From the IMG/VR virus record IMGVR_UViG_2551306525_000009: a DNA stretch of 36,183 bases; one strand, written 5' to 3'. Source of the stretch: a virus (lineage: Duplodnaviria; Heunggongvirae; Uroviricota; Caudoviricetes). Under the pieces are notes generated by a model. The model was not told where the DNA came from, did no database searches, and was given only the letters and a program-made list of their open reading frames with translations. The position numbers and the translations under genes are program-made. Every line of letters starts with the position of its first letter. Position 1 is the first letter of the stretch. Below, piece after piece: positions 26,601 to 33,503 of this stretch.

Positions 26601-27560
26601 TTACTCCTTGTCCATTGCGTACAGCCCATTAACCAGAGCAAACTGTGGCACCCCGTCCGCGATGAAAGTCGCATTAACTCCGCAGGCTTCGCGGATAGCG
26701 GGTGCCACAATCTCCGCCCCTCCACCGACAACCATCACCCGCCCGTAACCCGAAAAACCCGCCAGCGCGCGGATCACGCGTTGTTTCAGTGTTTCTTCCT
26801 TTTCACGAATAACCTCCATCAGGCTGGCGTAATGCGCGTCATTGTGGATGTGCTGGCGCAGCCAGGCTTCATTATGGCGATGTTCGATAATGGTATTGGC
26901 GATGTGGTGACTGGTGCGCATACCGTTAGTGGCCATCACCGACAGTACGGCATCGGCCATCAGAGAAACGCCTACGTGTGGATCGCAAAACACCTGGCTG
27001 ATACCTGCCAGTTGCCCCTGAACCTTTGCCACATCCAGCGTGGTTCCGCCCAAATCTACAATCAGCAGGGATTCAAACGGACTCATGTCAGCCAGTGCCT
27101 TAAAGCCAGCCGGAATGGATTCAGGCATAACCCGCACGTTACGGATAGTGAATGCTTCGCCGTTCTGGTACTCCACCGGGCGCATAACGTTCGCTTTTTT
27201 GCGGTTGATGTTGGCCATGTCCGGCTGTGCGTTTGTGTCGAAATACTCGCTCAGTGGCAGGGTGACAACCACATCCACCTCCTGTGGCGTGATGCCTGAT
27301 TTGACCAGCGCGTGATGAATGGCAATGACATTCACATCGCTGTACTGGTATTGCGTGTCGGTCGTCTGGACAAAGCGATCGCTGACCGGATCAAAACCAT
27401 AGCGCACGCCATCAAGCATGTAGTTCGCAGGCTGCGAGCCACCGAACGGCGCAGACCATTCCGACTTGAAGCTGTTCGGGCTGATGGCGTTGCGGCGTTC
27501 GCCGTTCTCAGTCCATGCCAGCTTGATGTTGGTGGAGCCGTCGTCGATACAAATTTTCAT
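26601..27560 (-). CDS. parM: ParM/StbA-family actin-like segregation ATPase
   Basis: MKICIDDGSTNIKL (phosphate-1), LIVDLGGTTLDV (phosphate-2), VVGGGAEIV (adenosine) motifs; 319 aa. Confidence 0.8.
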   Translation of the reverse strand: MKICIDDGSTNIKLAWTENGERRNAISPNSFKSEWSAPFGGSQPANYMLDGVRYGFDPVSDRFVQTTDTQYQYSDVNVIAIHHALVKSGITPQEVDVVVTLPLSEYFDTNAQPDMANINRKKANVMRPVEYQNGEAFTIRNVRVMPESIPAGFKALADMSPFESLLIVDLGGTTLDVAKVQGQLAGISQVFCDPHVGVSLMADAVLSVMATNGMRTSHHIANTIIEHRHNEAWLRQHIHNDAHYASLMEVIREKEETLKQRVIRALAGFSGYGRVMVVGGGAEIVAPAIREACGVNATFIADGVPQFALVNGLYAMDKE

Positions 27561-27627: not shown

Positions 27628-30463
27628 ATGCGCGCTTCATATATCGCGGCGCGTTTTTTTGCTCATTTATGGGATTTGTGAATCCCGTTTCTGTCTGTTT
27701 TTTGTTTCCACTGGTCAGGCCACCCCGCAGCAGGTCTGCTTTGCGGCGGGCGCGTTCAGTGGTTTCACTGATTCTCTGTGCGTGCTCTGCGTCGCGGATG
27801 GCGCGCAGCATGTCAGAAAGCACGGTAACGGGTGTTTTCATGGTGTTCTGGTCCTGCTGAAGTGTGGATGCCAGGCGTGCGGCGGCTTCAGGGTCTGATG
27901 CCCCCAGCTGTGCCAGATAGCTGGCGACCGGGTTATGGCGGATCTCCGTGCTGCTTACATCGTGATTACGGCTCAGGCGCTGCCAGAGCTGCGTGATTCG
28001 GCTGTCCGGGCGGGTATCCGGTTTGCGTACAATTTCAAATCCCTGCGGTGCAATGATGCTGCCGTCAACGTACAGACTGCCGCCCCGTAACAGGTGCTGC
28101 ATCTGTTGTTCACCGATATGCAGGCCAAGGGATTCAGCAGACTCCCGCCATTCTTTAGCGAGTAATTCGTGGTTATCAGGCAAAGGCCGCTGCTGTTTGC
28201 GGCTCTGTGTCCAGCTCTGCATTTCATCACTGTTGTTTTTTGCCTGTTTGTCACGCAGCGAACGCATCAGCGCCCGGCGTTCGTGCCGTTTCAGTGAGTG
28301 CAGCCATTCGTTCACTTCAACACCGTCAGGGATCTGCGGCCACGGTGCTGGCCGTTCTTCCGGCTGTTCTGTCCCGTTGTTGTCCGTTTCCTGTACACGG
28401 GGACAGTTATTGCCACGAGTCCAAGGGGCGGCAGGGCCGCCCTGAAGGTCAAAACCATTTTCGCGGGCGCTGTCTTCCGCTTCCGGTTTACGTCTTACCA
28501 GCTTCCAGTTATCCGGATGCGTGCACACACGGGAGGATTCCCCGATGAGTGGTGACCAGATCCCGTAAATCTGTACGCTCTGTTCGCCGTAATCGTTCAG
28601 CTCATCGGCGAGGTCGTAGGCGGTGCGAATCAGGTAGTCCTTGCGTGGAACAAGTACGCCGCCCTGTTTCTCTATATAGGTGGCAAAACATCCGGCATCA
28701 GCGGCAGCGAGTACCGCATCCATTGCGTCATCCTTCAGCCGTTGCGGGCCTTCCGGGTTGCGTGCCATCTGGCTGGCAAGGCGGCGGAGTTCACGCCACA
28801 CCTGACGGGAGGGGATGCCAAAGAACTGGAACTGGCGGACCCGGTGAAGGCGCGCCCAGCCGATGGCGCGCTCCACGCTCTCGGCCATTGATTTTCCGGT
28901 TTCGTGGTCAACGCGTGGTTTGCCCGTTTTCGGGTCGATGCCATCCACGGCGCGGCTGTCCAGGTTCTTTCCGATGTAGGTGGCGATGTAGCTGGTTGGC
29001 GTGCCTTTTGAGCCGTCTACATACTCCGCCTTAAAGCGCGGAGTAATATCATCACCCAGCTCGTGACGATCTTCCTGAATGGCAATATCGCGGGTGTGGG
29101 ACACAATGGTGTCGATTTCTTCCGGATGGGCAAAGACCATCATATGCCAGTGTACGGTGCCGTCATGGTGAGGCTCCACCGTGCGGATGCCATACCAGCG
29201 CAGGCCGTCGCGGTTCAGTTTTTTGCGGACCGCCGCAAAAAACGTGTTAACCAGGTAGTCGCTGGAGTCGCGCATGGTGGCCCCGTTCCATTTGGGGTTC
29301 GGATGACCGTTCTCCGTTGTTGCGTGGTATTTTGACGGGCAGGTGACAGTCAGAAACACCGCTTTGTCACCACGGGCTTCGGCCAGAAGTTCCAGCCCCT
29401 TCATGGTGGCCATCATTTCTGCCTTACGGTGAACCGGGTTACTTACTCCCGCGTAATACACTGTCTCGAGATCAATCGTGAACCCGTCTTCGTTTTCCAG
29501 CATGAAACTTTTCAGGAAATCGCGTGTTTTCTCGCGCTGTGCGCGAAACTCGCTTAACGCGTCCTGGCTCAGATAAGGCGATGTTTTTCTGGAAACCAGA
29601 CAGGCGGCGCGGAGTTGTTCTTCTCTCCACTCGCAACGTAACAGCCACAGTTTGCGTTTCCACCAGTCCGCACAGGTCAGGCGAAGGATTGCGCCCGGCA
29701 GCAGTTCCGTATCCGGTTCGCTCTTGTTCAGGGCTTCGTAATGTGGCGGCATGATGTGCAGGCGTAATGCGATACGAGCCAGCATCCGGTAAGCCTTCAA
29801 CATTACATCCATGGTCAGCTCGCCATCTCTGGCACCAAAGCCATCGCAGAGTGTTTCGAAGGTGCTGCTGAACATCGCCGCGGTCATGGTGGCCAGCGTC
29901 TGTATCTGGTGCTTGTTGAGCTGCGGCAGGTAAAGCAAATCGTCCAGGCGTTCGCGCCCGGCAAGGGAGCGATAACCCGGTGTCAGCCAGCGTCCGTCAG
30001 TGCGATCCAGACGTTCGAATATTTTGCGCAGGGGTCCGCGTGCATAGCGTTCCGCCTGCCAGCTCTTTTTACCTTTCTGGCGATCGGCTTCCTGTTTTTT
30101 GCGCAGGAAAGAGAGGTGGCGGCTCAGTGGTTCACGCAGATAAACAGGTAGTGCCTTTAGTGTGGCAAAGGCACGGGCTACCGGGTCTTGTTCTGTTGCC
30201 CGGCGCTTACTGATGATGCTCTGTGCCAGCTTTTCACGCTGTCCGGCTTCCTCAAGGGATGCCATGAGTTTTTTACCCATGGCGGATTGTGCGAAAAAGG
30301 CTTCTTCCTTCGCTTCCTGTTCTTCCTGTGCCCTTTTGTCCGCCTCAAGGTAGTAACGGATGGCGCGTTGCAGGTCGGTTTCAGTTTCCTGCCTGCGCTC
30401 CGTAAATCTGGCCGGATCAATGGCTGGCCGTGGTTCATTCCAGCTCCATGCAAACTCGCTCAT
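27626..30463 (-). CDS. A: replication initiation protein A (rolling-circle initiator, P2 gpA family)
   Basis: TVTCPSKYH, VEPHHDGTVHWHMMVF and YIATYIGKN active-site blocks as in P2/186 gpA; start either ATG 30463 (ATGA-coupled) or GTG 30490. Confidence 0.85.
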   Translation of the reverse strand: MSEFAWSWNEPRPAIDPARFTERRQETETDLQRAIRYYLEADKRAQEEQEAKEEAFFAQSAMGKKLMASLEEAGQREKLAQSIISKRRATEQDPVARAFATLKALPVYLREPLSRHLSFLRKKQEADRQKGKKSWQAERYARGPLRKIFERLDRTDGRWLTPGYRSLAGRERLDDLLYLPQLNKHQIQTLATMTAAMFSSTFETLCDGFGARDGELTMDVMLKAYRMLARIALRLHIMPPHYEALNKSEPDTELLPGAILRLTCADWWKRKLWLLRCEWREEQLRAACLVSRKTSPYLSQDALSEFRAQREKTRDFLKSFMLENEDGFTIDLETVYYAGVSNPVHRKAEMMATMKGLELLAEARGDKAVFLTVTCPSKYHATTENGHPNPKWNGATMRDSSDYLVNTFFAAVRKKLNRDGLRWYGIRTVEPHHDGTVHWHMMVFAHPEEIDTIVSHTRDIAIQEDRHELGDDITPRFKAEYVDGSKGTPTSYIATYIGKNLDSRAVDGIDPKTGKPRVDHETGKSMAESVERAIGWARLHRVRQFQFFGIPSRQVWRELRRLASQMARNPEGPQRLKDDAMDAVLAAADAGCFATYIEKQGGVLVPRKDYLIRTAYDLADELNDYGEQSVQIYGIWSPLIGESSRVCTHPDNWKLVRRKPEAEDSARENGFDLQGGPAAPWTRGNNCPRVQETDNNGTEQPEERPAPWPQIPDGVEVNEWLHSLKRHERRALMRSLRDKQAKNNSDEMQSWTQSRKQQRPLPDNHELLAKEWRESAESLGLHIGEQQMQHLLRGGSLYVDGSIIAPQGFEIVRKPDTRPDSRITQLWQRLSRNHDVSSTEIRHNPVASYLAQLGASDPEAAARLASTLQQDQNTMKTPVTVLSDMLRAIRDAEHAQRISETTERARRKADLLRGGLTSGNKKQTETGFTNPINEQKNAPRYMKRA
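27671..27701. repeat. repeat unit 2: GGGATTtgtgAATCCCGTTTCTGTCTGTTTT, inside the 3' coding end of gene A
   Basis: read directly; candidate parC-like centromere/operator or part of the replication origin. Confidence 0.6.
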
Positions 30464-30849
30464 GGCTGGTATCCCGTCACGCGCTGCCACTCCTGCGAGA
30501 AGATGGCGGAAAGGCGGTTAAATTCAGCGGTGTATTCACTCAGCGAGGCACACCCGCCAGCAGTGCGATGCGCCAGCATTGCCGCGAATACGGAGGCCGG
30601 GGAGTCGTAATACGCCAGCAGTGATTCGCCGTGTGGTGTCAGGCAGTGCAACGCCAGCCCGTGTGGTGTGAAGTCCACGCGGTAGCAGTCGTCTACTGTG
30701 AAATAAAGGGTGTCCGCATTCTCCGGTTTTGTAGTGCGTGCTCTGTTGTCACGACCACGGATGTAAAGATCAAATAATCCCTGAAGAACGGGAGCCAGAC
30801 GGGTGTCCTGTGTGCGCACCCATCTTGTGAAGTCATGAGCGTCAATCAT
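30460..30849 (-). CDS. hypothetical protein, 129 aa, stop overlapping A start
   Basis: ORF translationally coupled to A. Confidence 0.5.
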   Translation of the reverse strand: MIDAHDFTRWVRTQDTRLAPVLQGLFDLYIRGRDNRARTTKPENADTLYFTVDDCYRVDFTPHGLALHCLTPHGESLLAYYDSPASVFAAMLAHRTAGGCASLSEYTAEFNRLSAIFSQEWQRVTGYQP

Positions 30850-30921
30850 GCTGCAATTCTCTTTACTACAGATGTGCGAAGGCCTCCCGCCGCAAGGTGC
30901 AGGAAAGGCCCGGAACAGGAA

Positions 30922-31152
30922 TTAATGGAGTTTGTTTTGCTGCTGGATGAGCTGCTGAAGCTCGCGCAGATCATCCGCCAGATAGCTGAAAACAGCGGAT
31001 GAATAGAGGTTTGAAAGTTCGCAGCTACGCTCATGCAGCATATTGATGTGCATGATTTTAGCGACGCGGAATGCGCGGGAAAGTCTGCGGTTGATTTCAG
31101 TCTGGATGTGACGACGCTCCGCGATAGCGCGGTGCTGTTTGCGGTTTGCCAT
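30922..31152 (-). CDS. hypothetical basic small protein, 76 aa
   Basis: ORF with possible GAGG RBS; Arg/Lys-rich N-terminus. Confidence 0.4.
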   Translation of the reverse strand: MANRKQHRAIAERRHIQTEINRRLSRAFRVAKIMHINMLHERSCELSNLYSSAVFSYLADDLRELQQLIQQQNKLH

Positions 31153-31162
31153 GGTGTGGCCT

Positions 31163-31366
31163 CGTGTATAGTAAGTTTTGAAAACTCACCATCCAGAGGT
31201 GGAAAACTCGGGGTGGTGAGACGTACAGGGTTTCCACAACCGGCTATACACGAACCCGGCCCGACCGAAGTCGGCCCCATACGCCCCACCATAATTCTGA
31301 CGCGAAAAAGACGTGGCGATACGGTACGCACAAAAAAACCGCTGGCGCGGTTGTGCGCGTGTATAG
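31163..31366 (-). ncRNA. candidate cis-regulatory RNA region: 9-mer CGTGTATAG at 31163 and 31358 with its complement CTATACACG at 31244
   Basis: three copies read directly, allowing mutually exclusive pairings; located in the 5' UTR of the 76-aa ORF within a 367-bp non-coding gap. Confidence 0.3.
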
Positions 31367-31491
31367 TCAGCGGGGTGGAAATCCCGGCACCCGTTTTATG
31401 AGGTGCAGCGGAAATGTAACCTGACTGATTGCGGCATGGCAAGCGGTTTTTTTGTGAGAACGGCATACTAAAAAATCCTGATGCTGCTCCG

Positions 31492-31516
31492 GCCAGCGGT
31501 TTCCACTGGCCGGGTT
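31492..31516 (-). terminator. hairpin 3 nt after the SPFH gene stop (CCGGCCAG-cggtttcca-CTGGCCGG)
   Basis: 8-bp GC-rich stem read directly; T-tract on the minus strand only further downstream, so terminator assignment is tentative. Confidence 0.4.
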
Positions 31517-31519
31517 TAA

Positions 31520-32350
31520 TTACTTCACCGGAACAAACGGAACAGCGGTATTACTGGTCATGTATTGCGGCAGCGTGCCGTTCCATTTGTTGATAGCTTC
31601 CAGCTCCATAACGCCGGGGTTCTGGCGCAGAGCTTCACCGCGCAAACGAATGGCGTCGGCTTCAGCCTGGGCTTTTGTGCGAATGGCATCAGCCTGTCCG
31701 GCTGCTTCTGCGCGTAGCATGTTGGCTTCTGCTTCGCGCTGCTTGACTTCCTGTTCGCGTTGCAGAGTTTTCTGGTTTGCCGTGACTTTGGCATTAATGC
31801 TGTCGATAACGGTTGGTGGGTATTCCGGTTTACCGACATAAGAGAGGCTCATTACCTGAATGCCGATAGGTGTCATTTCTGCCTGAATGTCTTTAAGTGC
31901 TGAATCCAGCAGTTCAGACTTGCCACCGTCGATAAATTTATCGGTGGTCATTTTACTGGCCAGTCGGTTGAGTGCGTCGGCGATCTTCTGGCGCAGGTCA
32001 GTGTCGGTAATGTCATCCACGCCTTTGCGGTAGGTCTGAAACACTGTAGTAACTTTGGATGGATCAACCTTGTAGGCCACACCGATGTGATAGCCGATGG
32101 TTGTGCCGTCACTCATCTGAAAGCTGAACGGCTCATCGTAGGTCTTCATTTGTTTGAAGGTTGGGAAGATGTAAACCTCTGTATTCCAGCCTGTCCAGTA
32201 GCGGCCAACGCCAACCACTTCACCGACGCCTTTGTCGTCGCCCAGTTTGTTGACTTTGATGCCCACATTACCTGGCTCAACGCGATCGCAACCAACCAGC
32301 AGGATGGCAGCAAAAAGCGGGAGAATCTGAAAGAGTTTGAATCTCTTCAT
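31520..32350 (-). CDS. SPFH/band-7 (stomatin/HflK/C-like) lipoprotein
   Basis: lipobox LLVGC after signal peptide; SPFH-like core then Ala/Glu/Arg-rich coiled-coil tail (EADAIRLRGEALRQNPGVMELEAINKW), assigned by sequence character. Confidence 0.65.
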   Translation of the reverse strand: MKRFKLFQILPLFAAILLVGCDRVEPGNVGIKVNKLGDDKGVGEVVGVGRYWTGWNTEVYIFPTFKQMKTYDEPFSFQMSDGTTIGYHIGVAYKVDPSKVTTVFQTYRKGVDDITDTDLRQKIADALNRLASKMTTDKFIDGGKSELLDSALKDIQAEMTPIGIQVMSLSYVGKPEYPPTVIDSINAKVTANQKTLQREQEVKQREAEANMLRAEAAGQADAIRTKAQAEADAIRLRGEALRQNPGVMELEAINKWNGTLPQYMTSNTAVPFVPVK

Positions 32351-32550
32351 TGTTTGATTTCCTTGATGTACTTACTGAAAAGGCGAACAACGCCTGCCGG
32401 GTACAGCATGGCAATGAAAATGCCCAGCAATACCAGGAAGGAGCTGTCTGATGAAATCATTCGGGGGAGTAGTCCTGCATACAGAATGAGAGAAACGAGG
32501 ACGCATACCAGCGCCCACATGTATGCGCGAAACCAGGTCTTTTTGTTCAT
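32347..32550 (-). CDS. small two-TM membrane protein, translationally coupled to the SPFH gene
   Basis: 67 aa, two hydrophobic helices; stop overlaps SPFH start (ATGA). Confidence 0.55.
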   Translation of the reverse strand: MNKKTWFRAYMWALVCVLVSLILYAGLLPRMISSDSSFLVLLGIFIAMLYPAGVVRLFSKYIKEIKQ

Positions 32551-32561
32551 ATCGCGGTCCT

Positions 32562-32861
32562 TTACTGGTTAAGGAAGAAATCAAAAACCTTGTCGATGCG
32601 TTGCAGTAGCTCTCGTTGCATTGCTTCCGGCGTTTCTGGTTCACCAGGCGAACCCAGTGGTGCGCAGAAATCAGCGATTTCATGATGAAGCGCCAGGCGA
32701 ATGGCTGGAGACATGGTTCTGGCGTGCTCCAGCTCATCCAGCAGTGCCAGCACGGCAGACGGCGAGAGCATTGCGCGAAACGCCAGTAATTTTTGATGCG
32801 TTGCCATTCGTTGCAGGTCAATCGCCAGTTCGCGTAATTCCTGGAGGTTGATGGCGTTCAT
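32562..32861 (-). CDS. hypothetical protein, 99 aa
   Basis: ORF; start overlaps upstream stop (ATGA). Confidence 0.5.
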   Translation of the reverse strand: MNAINLQELRELAIDLQRMATHQKLLAFRAMLSPSAVLALLDELEHARTMSPAIRLALHHEIADFCAPLGSPGEPETPEAMQRELLQRIDKVFDFFLNQ

Positions 32862-33303: not shown

Positions 33304-33410
33304 TACGCCTCCTTGGCGTGTGCGAATACCTCCGCGAATGCGGATTGTTTTTACATTTTCTTATTTAACCTGTGGTTTTATTTGCTCTGTTATTCGCCAG
33401 TGAAAAAGCG

Positions 33411-33503
33411 TTCAATCTTTTTTACTGAATGAATAATTCGCATAATCCCAATGGCGCAGGCCACCGAAATAATCAGAACAAGCCATGAGATAAATATACT
33501 CAT
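33411..33503 (-). CDS. putative 30-aa hydrophobic micro-ORF (MSIFISWLVLIISVACAIGIMRIIHSVKKD)
   Basis: ATG overlaps the stop of the 80-aa gene (ATGA); single TM helix; identified manually. Confidence 0.3.

Follow-up and report, generated by a model that had tools for sequence, protein, structure and literature searches.

We analysed a window of 36,183 nucleotides, the whole stretch of IMG/VR virus record IMGVR_UViG_2551306525_000009 (Caudoviricetes), with a focus on two adjacent minus-strand genes that encode an SPFH (band-7) lipoprotein and a small membrane protein, hereafter the partner. It comprises nearly all of a P88-like prophage of the P2 type (Xuanwuvirus, Peduoviridae), whose structural genes are 96-97% identical to those of P88 and phage 520873. 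The original prediction, made from the sequence alone, had described an ATGA-coupled unit of a peptide with two transmembrane (TM) segments and a lipobox-containing SPFH protein with a coiled-coil tail. Both open reading frames (ORFs) were found exactly at the predicted coordinates, the 67-amino acid (aa) partner gene at 32347..32550 and the 276-aa SPFH gene at 31520..32350. The stop codon of the partner gene and the start codon of the SPFH gene share the four bases ATGA (32347..32350), an arrangement consistent with translational coupling, and the same -4 overlap was present in all P88-type loci and in phage phiP27. Each gene is preceded by an AAGGA ribosome-binding site at a spacing of 8-9 nt from its ATG; that of the SPFH gene (32360-32364) lies 9 nt before the start codon, and that of the partner gene (32558..32562) overlaps the stop codon of the upstream Ead/Ea22-like gene. 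Because of this overlap, there is no room for a separate promoter of the partner gene, and a promoter scan of the window detected no promoter-like site in front of the pair. When natural variants were compared, the ratio of nonsynonymous to synonymous substitutions (dN/dS) was 0.01-0.04 for the SPFH gene and 0.17-0.30 for the partner gene. Since these values show purifying selection, both ORFs are real genes and not chance reading frames.

The SPFH protein starts with a lipoprotein signal peptide (residues 1-20, MKRFKLFQILPLFAAILLVG), followed by Cys21 of the lipobox LVGC and by Asp22 at position +2; signal peptide and lipobox occupy 32288..32350 on the minus strand and fit the pattern [LVI][ASTVI][GAS]C. 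The lipobox cysteine was kept in at least 90% of family members. In E. coli, Asp at +2 acts as an inner-membrane retention (Lol-avoidance) signal. From these sequence features, we infer that the SPFH protein is lipidated at Cys21 and retained at the inner membrane.

Residues 23-209 (31724..32284, minus strand) matched Pfam Band_7 (PF01145) with E=7.6e-31; the score of 107.9 bits is well above the cut-off of 23.6. The protein also matched phrog_200, annotated as 'lipoprotein' (E=8e-112). An AlphaFold2 (AF2) model, built with 52 diverse relatives in the alignment, reached a predicted local distance difference test (pLDDT) score of 86.9 and showed the strand and helix pattern of an SPFH alpha/beta domain over this region, then a long helix, a short helix, and a low-confidence tail, in which the C-terminal 14 residues of the monomer model had pLDDT values below 50. 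Low values would be expected of a segment that becomes ordered only in an oligomer, although they do not in themselves speak for assembly. The long helix, assigned by DSSP, is rich in Ala, Glu, Gln, and Arg and runs for 65 residues (179-243; 31622..31816, minus strand); it is this single helix that had been described as a coiled-coil tail. In solved SPFH complexes, the equivalent long helix forms the wall of the cage. It is followed by a conserved C-terminal segment, K-W-N-G-x-L-P, in which W256, G258, and P261 are invariant.

A Foldseek search of the model against the PDB returned prohibitin, erlin, HflK/C, stomatin, flotillin, QmcA, and the vault shoulder over nearly the full length (E 1e-13 to 1e-7). 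The top matches were prohibitin, erlin, HflK/C, and stomatin (E 1e-13 to 1e-11), and the probability was 1.00 for these four as well as for flotillin and QmcA. By sequence, the nearest solved protein was HflK (E 7e-4), with an alignment spanning residues 115-241. The resemblance to host HflK/C that had been pointed out thus holds for the fold and for the nearest solved relative; it does not extend to orthology, as the NCBIfam scores were far below the cut-offs (hflC, 24.8 bits versus 134.4; hflK, 22.7 versus 159.4) and the locus has a single SPFH gene. Judging from the modelled fold, the protein is of the HflK/C-prohibitin type, within the cage-forming SPFH class, and is not an orthologue of HflK or HflC. 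In GenBank, the same protein appears as 'serine protease', 'transposase', 'high frequency of lysogenization C protein', 'stomatin-like integral membrane protein', or 'lipoprotein'. The first two labels are not supported by the sequence; the protein has no protease domain, and 'serine protease', used in some records, comes from the old COG name 'membrane protease subunit'. No extra domain that might hint at a function was found in the longer family members.

The partner has two hydrophobic segments, at about residues 8-30 and 36-58, and its N and C termini are basic according to hydropathy and charge, which together predict an N-in/C-in topology. The predicted periplasmic turn comprises about residues 31-36, and only about 10 residues follow the second TM segment (TM2). 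The protein matched phrog_1130, 'membrane protein' (E=1.3e-22). In an alignment of 29 diverse partners, P29, S33, and G43 were invariant, a proline in TM2 was common, and the turn carried the conserved motif Pro-x-[LM]-[IV]-Ser. When a natural fusion of the two proteins (P0001) was modelled with AF2, this module formed two helices, 5-38 and 43-68, linked by a four-residue turn, a helical hairpin that agrees with the predicted two-TM peptide. A profile of the 29 partners found no meaningful match in Pfam, NCBIfam, or PDB sequences, and neither did a Pfam scan of the single protein. NfeD, known as the operon partner of SPFH proteins in prokaryotes, was considered and rejected, as the partner has no OB-fold domain (oligonucleotide/oligosaccharide-binding fold), only about 10 residues lie past TM2, and none of the 29 diverse partners matched NfeD. 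The generic features of a class II holin are all present (small size, two TM segments, N-in/C-in topology, and a charged C terminus), though they are not specific to holins; a holin identity was rejected by context, since every context examined places the gene in the early region and coupled to the SPFH gene, and not in a lysis cassette beside an endolysin gene.

The association of the two proteins extends well beyond this prophage. In phiP27 and in P1-like phage-plasmids, an unannotated small ORF with two TM segments overlaps the start of the SPFH gene, and a coupled two-TM ORF was present in 81 of the 83 close loci. A broader set comprised 267 loci, among which there were 86 distinct SPFH sequences. 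Under strict adjacency or fusion criteria, an adjacent or fused partner accompanied at least 71 of the 86, and on inspection most of the rest had diverged or mis-started partners; in phages DL54 and phiEa21-4, a partner-like ORF lay two genes upstream of the SPFH gene. An exhaustive search of 1.84 billion cluster representatives returned 2,879 relatives, 221 of them at E<1e-30, and a genome-locus search with a five-sequence SPFH alignment returned 18 genome loci. Among the best 150 representatives at 50% identity, about 20 had the two-TM module fused N-terminally to the SPFH lipoprotein; one representative (P0148) carried it at the C terminus. The order in the N-terminal fusions was TM1, turn, TM2, basic linker, signal-anchor, Cys, and SPFH domain. 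Because this order is topologically coherent only if the SPFH part is periplasmic and anchored in the inner membrane, the fusions argue for that location. We also observed that the fusions (P0143, P0150, P0154, P0155, P0157, P0313, P0001, and others) keep an internal lipobox cysteine after the third hydrophobic segment. The partner, which matched no known family and is not NfeD, is a conserved, family-wide companion of the SPFH protein and is sometimes fused to it.

The mature SPFH protein of the window was 97% identical to that of phiP27 (L002) and 98% identical to that of the P1-like type (L003), whereas the partners were merely 25% and 45% identical, respectively. Nucleotide similarity between the window, phiP27, and P1-like types begins within the SPFH gene, where the signal peptide is encoded or shortly past it. 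The phiP27 partner is similar to the one found in a Salmonella prophage, although the SPFH protein of that prophage is just 53% identical to that of the window. Because the identities of the two halves differ in this way and the similarity starts within the SPFH gene, the halves recombine independently, with the break at the signal peptide. Any contact between the SPFH protein and its partner must therefore rest on a few conserved residues.

The original prediction had also noted a hairpin behind the pair. A GC-rich stem-loop with an 11-bp stem is indeed predicted at 31489..31513 on the minus strand, beginning 6 nt past the SPFH stop codon; the 71-nt region folded with a free energy of -26.9 kcal/mol (z=-4.0), and none of 200 shuffled sequences folded as well. 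It does not look like a canonical intrinsic terminator, since the run of six uridines (31470-31475, minus strand) begins 13 nt beyond the stem and a minus-strand terminator scan gave no call. The stem-loop probably stabilises the 3' end of the mRNA or is a leaky terminator. According to an alignment with Citrobacter phage Shae_phiSM, the SPFH cassette ends downstream at about 31459-31465, and because the stem-loop lies on the cassette side of this homology break, it travels with the cassette.

A stem-loop or annotated terminator directly 3' of the SPFH gene was found in most phages whose context was read. Examples are phiP27, MY01, 4MG, phiEa21-4, and prophages of Salmonella and Epibacterium. 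The stem-loops examined (loci L002 2405-2485, L089 3845-3925, L087 6833-6913, L090 3863-3935, L084 6855-6895, and L092 3895-3919) are GC-rich, and some are canonical or annotated terminators, with sequences that are non-homologous across unrelated phages. Because the SPFH gene is under extreme purifying selection (the dN/dS of 0.01-0.04 given above) and is followed by a stem-loop in many phages, its product is probably structural and made in large amounts. In the P1-like phage-plasmid MH445380 (L003 2898-2973), the place of the hairpin is taken by a tRNA-Met gene (anticodon CAT) just 3' of the SPFH gene.

The SPFH family was widely distributed among phages. A tblastn search found it in 412 of 50,697 phage records, many of them from obligately lytic phages, including N4-like (MY01, Fifi011, and OLB145), rV5-like (4MG and GAP31), Felix-O1-like (phiEa21-4), Bruynoghevirus (DL54), phiCbK-like, and jumbo phages. 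Lak phages as well as temperate P2-, P1-, and lambda-like phages were further carriers, so that the family spans myo-, sipho-, and podoviruses, with hosts among the alpha-, beta-, gamma-, and delta-proteobacteria and the Bacteroidota. It was also present in prophages of Rhodobacterales and Rhodopseudomonas, and in 531 of 5,426 complete E. coli genomes (about 10%), on chromosomes and plasmids. In every context that was read, the pair lay among early or DNA-metabolism/replication genes: before gpA (P88), beside DnaB, between the SSB (single-stranded DNA-binding protein) and PolA genes, after the genes for the DNA polymerase III beta subunit and dCMP deaminase, between those for RNA polymerase and dUTPase/DnaA, between ligase and exonuclease, after a DNA polymerase gene, and near ribonucleotide reductase and homing endonuclease genes. 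In the lambdoid phages (phiP27 and Stx2 phages), it occupied the leftward early region near int and xis; the neighbouring genes of phiP27 that were scanned matched no characterised family, only DUF4222, DUF5406, and an HTH (helix-turn-helix) repressor. Two records showed full identity within the cassette: a record titled Salmonella enterica strain s1 chromosome (L273) encodes a 100% identical SPFH protein, and the E. coli CDE6306 chromosome (H81) is 100% identical across the 1,121-nt cassette. Either this prophage type has spread between genera very recently, or one of the records is mislabelled.

With regard to the gene location in the window, the pair lies in the early operon, as had been predicted, and is not directly beside replication gene A. 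On the minus strand, the order is Cox, several small early ORFs, a winged HTH gene, the Ead-like gene, the partner, the SPFH gene, the hairpin, a 367-nt gap, a 76-aa 'Derepression' gene, a 129-aa ORF, and gpA. P88 has the same two genes, annotated as gp11 'membrane protein' (partner) and gp12 'lipoprotein' (SPFH), with 94.8% nucleotide identity over the cassette. Comparison of Xuanwuvirus loci (L093-L097) showed that the cargo carried at about 30850-32560, between the Ead-like gene and the ORF preceding gpA, varies. In P88 and the window, this slot is occupied by the SPFH pair; P884B11, PhiR44_2, and 705R2 have a gene for a 205-aa Ash-family protein there, Shae_phiSM has one for a 183-aa HTH protein, and in phage 520873 the slot is empty. 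The pair is thus optional cargo in a variable slot of the early operon. Base composition did not flag a horizontal transfer, as the GC content of 0.49-0.54 is like that of the flanks. In P2-type phages, the early promoter is repressed by C in the lysogen. Because the pair lies in the early operon and has no promoter-like site of its own, it is expected to be read from the early promoter, together with the early (lytic) genes.

Four features separate the pair from gpA: an isrK-like Hfq-binding small RNA (RF01394; 31332-31406, minus strand; 63.5 bits), a C4-like antisense RNA (RF01695; 31209-31296, minus strand; 77.3 bits), both above the Rfam gathering score, the 76-aa 'Derepression protein' gene (30922..31152, minus strand; PF25738, E 6e-7), and the 129-aa ORF (30460..30849). 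The two RNAs and the 'Derepression' gene look like a P1 immI-type (c4/ant) antirepressor module inside a P2-like early operon, and a c4/ant-like module is also found in Shae_phiSM, which is without the SPFH pair. A second tiny membrane protein of the early operon is encoded at 33390-33503 on the minus strand, a 37-aa ORF with a single TM segment (MSIFISWLVLIISVACAIGIMRIIHSVKKIERFFTGE) that corresponds to P88 gp07 'membrane protein'. Beyond gpA lie genes (26601-27560, minus strand, and neighbours) that, by correspondence with the P88 annotation alone, we take to encode ParM-like segregation and partition proteins; according to that annotation, these are plasmid-style maintenance functions in an integrating P2-like phage.

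Several characterised systems share parts of this architecture. The HflK/HflC cage around FtsH in E. coli (PDB 7vhp, 7wi3, and 9cz2) has the SPFH fold, the long wall helix, an N-terminal membrane anchor, and a bulk in the periplasm, as is predicted for the window protein. The differences are that the window protein would be anchored by a lipid (lipobox) and HflK/C are anchored by a TM helix, that its single SPFH gene leads us to expect a homo-oligomer instead of an HflK-HflC heterodimer, and that it is phage-encoded and has a gene for a 67-aa hairpin protein as its neighbour. The SPFH-NfeD operons (QmcA-YbbJ, PDB 8z5g; YqiK-YqiJ; Pyrococcus PH1511-PH1510) likewise have a small membrane-protein gene in front, coupled and sometimes fused, and the adjacent, co-oriented, and coupled small gene of the window resembles them in this respect; however, the partner here lacks the NfeD/OB-fold domain. 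QmcA, still a fold match, faces the cytoplasm, whereas the window SPFH protein is predicted to be a periplasm-facing lipoprotein. The prohibitin and erlin complexes (PDB 9o9z, 8rrh, and 9vvj) gave the best structural matches and have an N-terminal anchor with the cage on the non-cytoplasmic side, but they are eukaryotic hetero-oligomers with 14-18% identity, and their partners are the m-AAA protease and ligases of endoplasmic-reticulum-associated degradation. Among phage families, the window proteins are direct members of phrog_200 and phrog_1130, whose entries in PHROG and GenBank assign no function and make no connection between the two.

Taken together, these results suggest a model in which the pair acts as a two-gene accessory phage module that would be transcribed with the early lytic genes. 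After export, the 276-aa product would be lipidated at Cys21 and so stay attached to the inner membrane, on its periplasmic face. Once mature, the protein has the make-up of a complete SPFH protein, with the SPFH domain, the wall-forming long helix, and a C-terminal cap segment, and it is predicted to assemble into a homo-oligomeric dome or cage over a membrane patch, as HflK/C, prohibitin, erlin, and stomatin do. The 67-aa product would form a two-helix hairpin in the same membrane, of which only the Pro-x-[LM]-[IV]-Ser turn reaches the periplasmic surface, and would be the obligate companion, which either seeds the cage or is enclosed by it. Such a cage would fence off inner-membrane proteins during infection. 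We give a probability of roughly 0.4 to this reading, namely that an SPFH cage, formed early in lytic growth and facing the periplasm from the inner membrane, controls a membrane protein of the host, a proposal that draws on analogy with the solved cages.

The target is the most tentative part of the proposal. The cages of HflK/C, prohibitin, and erlin, which are anchored on the non-cytoplasmic side, all gate the degradation of membrane proteins. Because of this analogy, control of host membrane proteolysis or quality control in favour of phage development is ranked first among the possible effects, followed by superinfection exclusion and then by membrane stabilisation or lysis timing. The controlled protein would most likely be FtsH, and modulation of FtsH, which had been suggested for the pair, is a live candidate mechanism by the same analogy; as a specific assignment, however, we hold FtsH to be doubtful. 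In a broader form that seems to us possible and not more, the pair would be a previously unrecognised, very widespread host-takeover device, a periplasmic-face cage that captures or stands in for the HflK/C-FtsH compartment of the host or some other inner-membrane machine that is universal. The turnover of membrane proteins would then be reprogrammed by lytic and temperate phages alike, and the rapidly swapping partner may set which client is enclosed.

A number of observations weigh against this cage proposal. The similarity to HflK/C is remote, with about 16% identity in structural alignments, so that a shared FtsH-binding surface cannot be assumed. An SPFH protein conserved at 97-98% beside partners conserved at 25-45% is not what would be expected of a tightly co-evolving complex. 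Asp22 is not universal, and some enterobacterial relatives have Glu or Ser at +2, residues that in E. coli direct a lipoprotein to the outer membrane. In the literature on SPFH proteins, phages, defence, exclusion, and early genes, we found no experimental study of any family member. What we did find were mentions at the level of annotation and a single paragraph of speculation; according to one paper, why a phage should have an SPFH gene 'remains unclear' (PMC13239085). Furthermore, PM0222, an HflK/C-like protein of 25-35 kDa from a Pasteurella multocida prophage, was found in lysogen cultures and in outer-membrane vesicles, and its deletion attenuated virulence (PMC9872710). As a possible relative, it hints at expression beyond lytic growth and at a location other than the inner membrane.

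An early-expressed phage lipoprotein of the envelope together with a small inner-membrane protein is also the classical architecture of exclusion, for which T4 imm/sp, T5 llp, phi80/N15 cor, and TP-J34 ltp are the known examples. If the pair served superinfection exclusion in lytic growth, as T4 Imm/Sp and T5 Llp do, the assembly would block entry of the DNA of a second phage or lysis from without, a reading that fits both its place as optional cargo of a variable slot and its carriage by lytic and temperate phages alike. T5 Llp, phi80/N15 Cor, and TP-J34 Ltp are phage envelope lipoproteins, some of them made early by lytic phages, but these small proteins have no SPFH domain, and their target is a specific receptor or tape-measure protein; to our knowledge, they have no sequence or fold relationship with the window protein. 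Known exclusion proteins are narrow and fast-evolving, whereas one SPFH family with a dN/dS of 0.01-0.04 is highly conserved across myo-, sipho-, and podoviruses with differing entry routes and very diverse hosts, and a cage would cover small membrane patches only. A search of PADLOC-DB v2 gave no hit for the SPFH protein, a marginal match of 14 bits over a TM segment for the partner, and nothing significant for the neighbours. We consider exclusion unlikely on this balance. Somewhat behind it stands the proposal that the SPFH scaffold rigidifies or repairs the inner membrane, sustains the proton-motive force, prevents premature holin triggering, and so lengthens the productive period of infection. 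Membrane organisation and stress are the processes with which SPFH and flotillin proteins are generally associated, a universal function of this kind would suit the broad host range, and the product appears abundant and structural; the pair, however, was never in a lysis cassette among the contexts examined, and the conserved and specific turn motif of the partner is left unexplained by this role, which we regard as improbable.

Because the function must suit lytic and temperate phages of many hosts, it should be neither specific to lysogeny nor a prophage-expressed defence. This bears on both proposals of the original prediction. According to the one, a phage mimic of HflK/C would set the lysis-lysogeny decision through the degradation of lysogeny regulators by FtsH. 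The resemblance to HflK, the early expression expected of the pair, which would coincide with the time of decision, and the position near int and xis in lambdoid phages are in keeping with it. P2-type phages, however, decide through C and Cox, and we know of no FtsH-dependent step in that decision. Some close Xuanwuvirus relatives are without the pair, and the same family is common in obligately lytic phages, a reason for which an HflK/C-lysogeny link, when raised earlier, was also doubted (PMC8540360). We therefore judge a lysis-lysogeny-specific role to be very unlikely as the function of the family. Lysogenic conversion fares no better and is again very improbable. Here, the pair would be expressed from the prophage, either as anti-phage defence or abortive infection, or as a lipoprotein at the cell surface or in vesicles with an effect on the animal host; the cassette is carried by about 10% of complete E. 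coli genomes, and PM0222, a possible relative, was reported as a vesicle-borne virulence factor (PMC9872710). A pair that lies in a C-repressed early operon, has no promoter-like site of its own, and gave no significant PADLOC match is a poor fit for prophage-expressed exclusion or abortive infection, and conversion cannot explain the presence of the family in lytic phages.

The pair is thus a real and common phage membrane module and not a lysogeny switch special to this prophage. The SPFH gene itself was already known, being annotated in many phage genomes. What appears to be new is the family-wide hairpin partner, sometimes fused and distinct from NfeD, the recognition of the pair as a mobile early-gene cassette common to lytic and temperate phages, and the independent shuffling of its halves. 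The practical gain is modest: better annotation than 'serine protease', 'transposase', or 'lipoprotein', and a candidate determinant of phage fitness. The conceptual gain depends on the target of the module.

SPFH proteins are universal membrane organisers. The module presented here is a compact and self-contained viral version, with one SPFH gene and one partner of 60-80 aa under very strong selection, and it is carried by hundreds of phages of all three tailed morphologies and by about a tenth of complete E. coli genomes. Since it is dispensable in close relatives and of a size that fits on a plasmid, it would be a tractable probe of the role of an SPFH cage on the periplasmic side, and of which membrane process phages of very different lifestyles must control early in infection.

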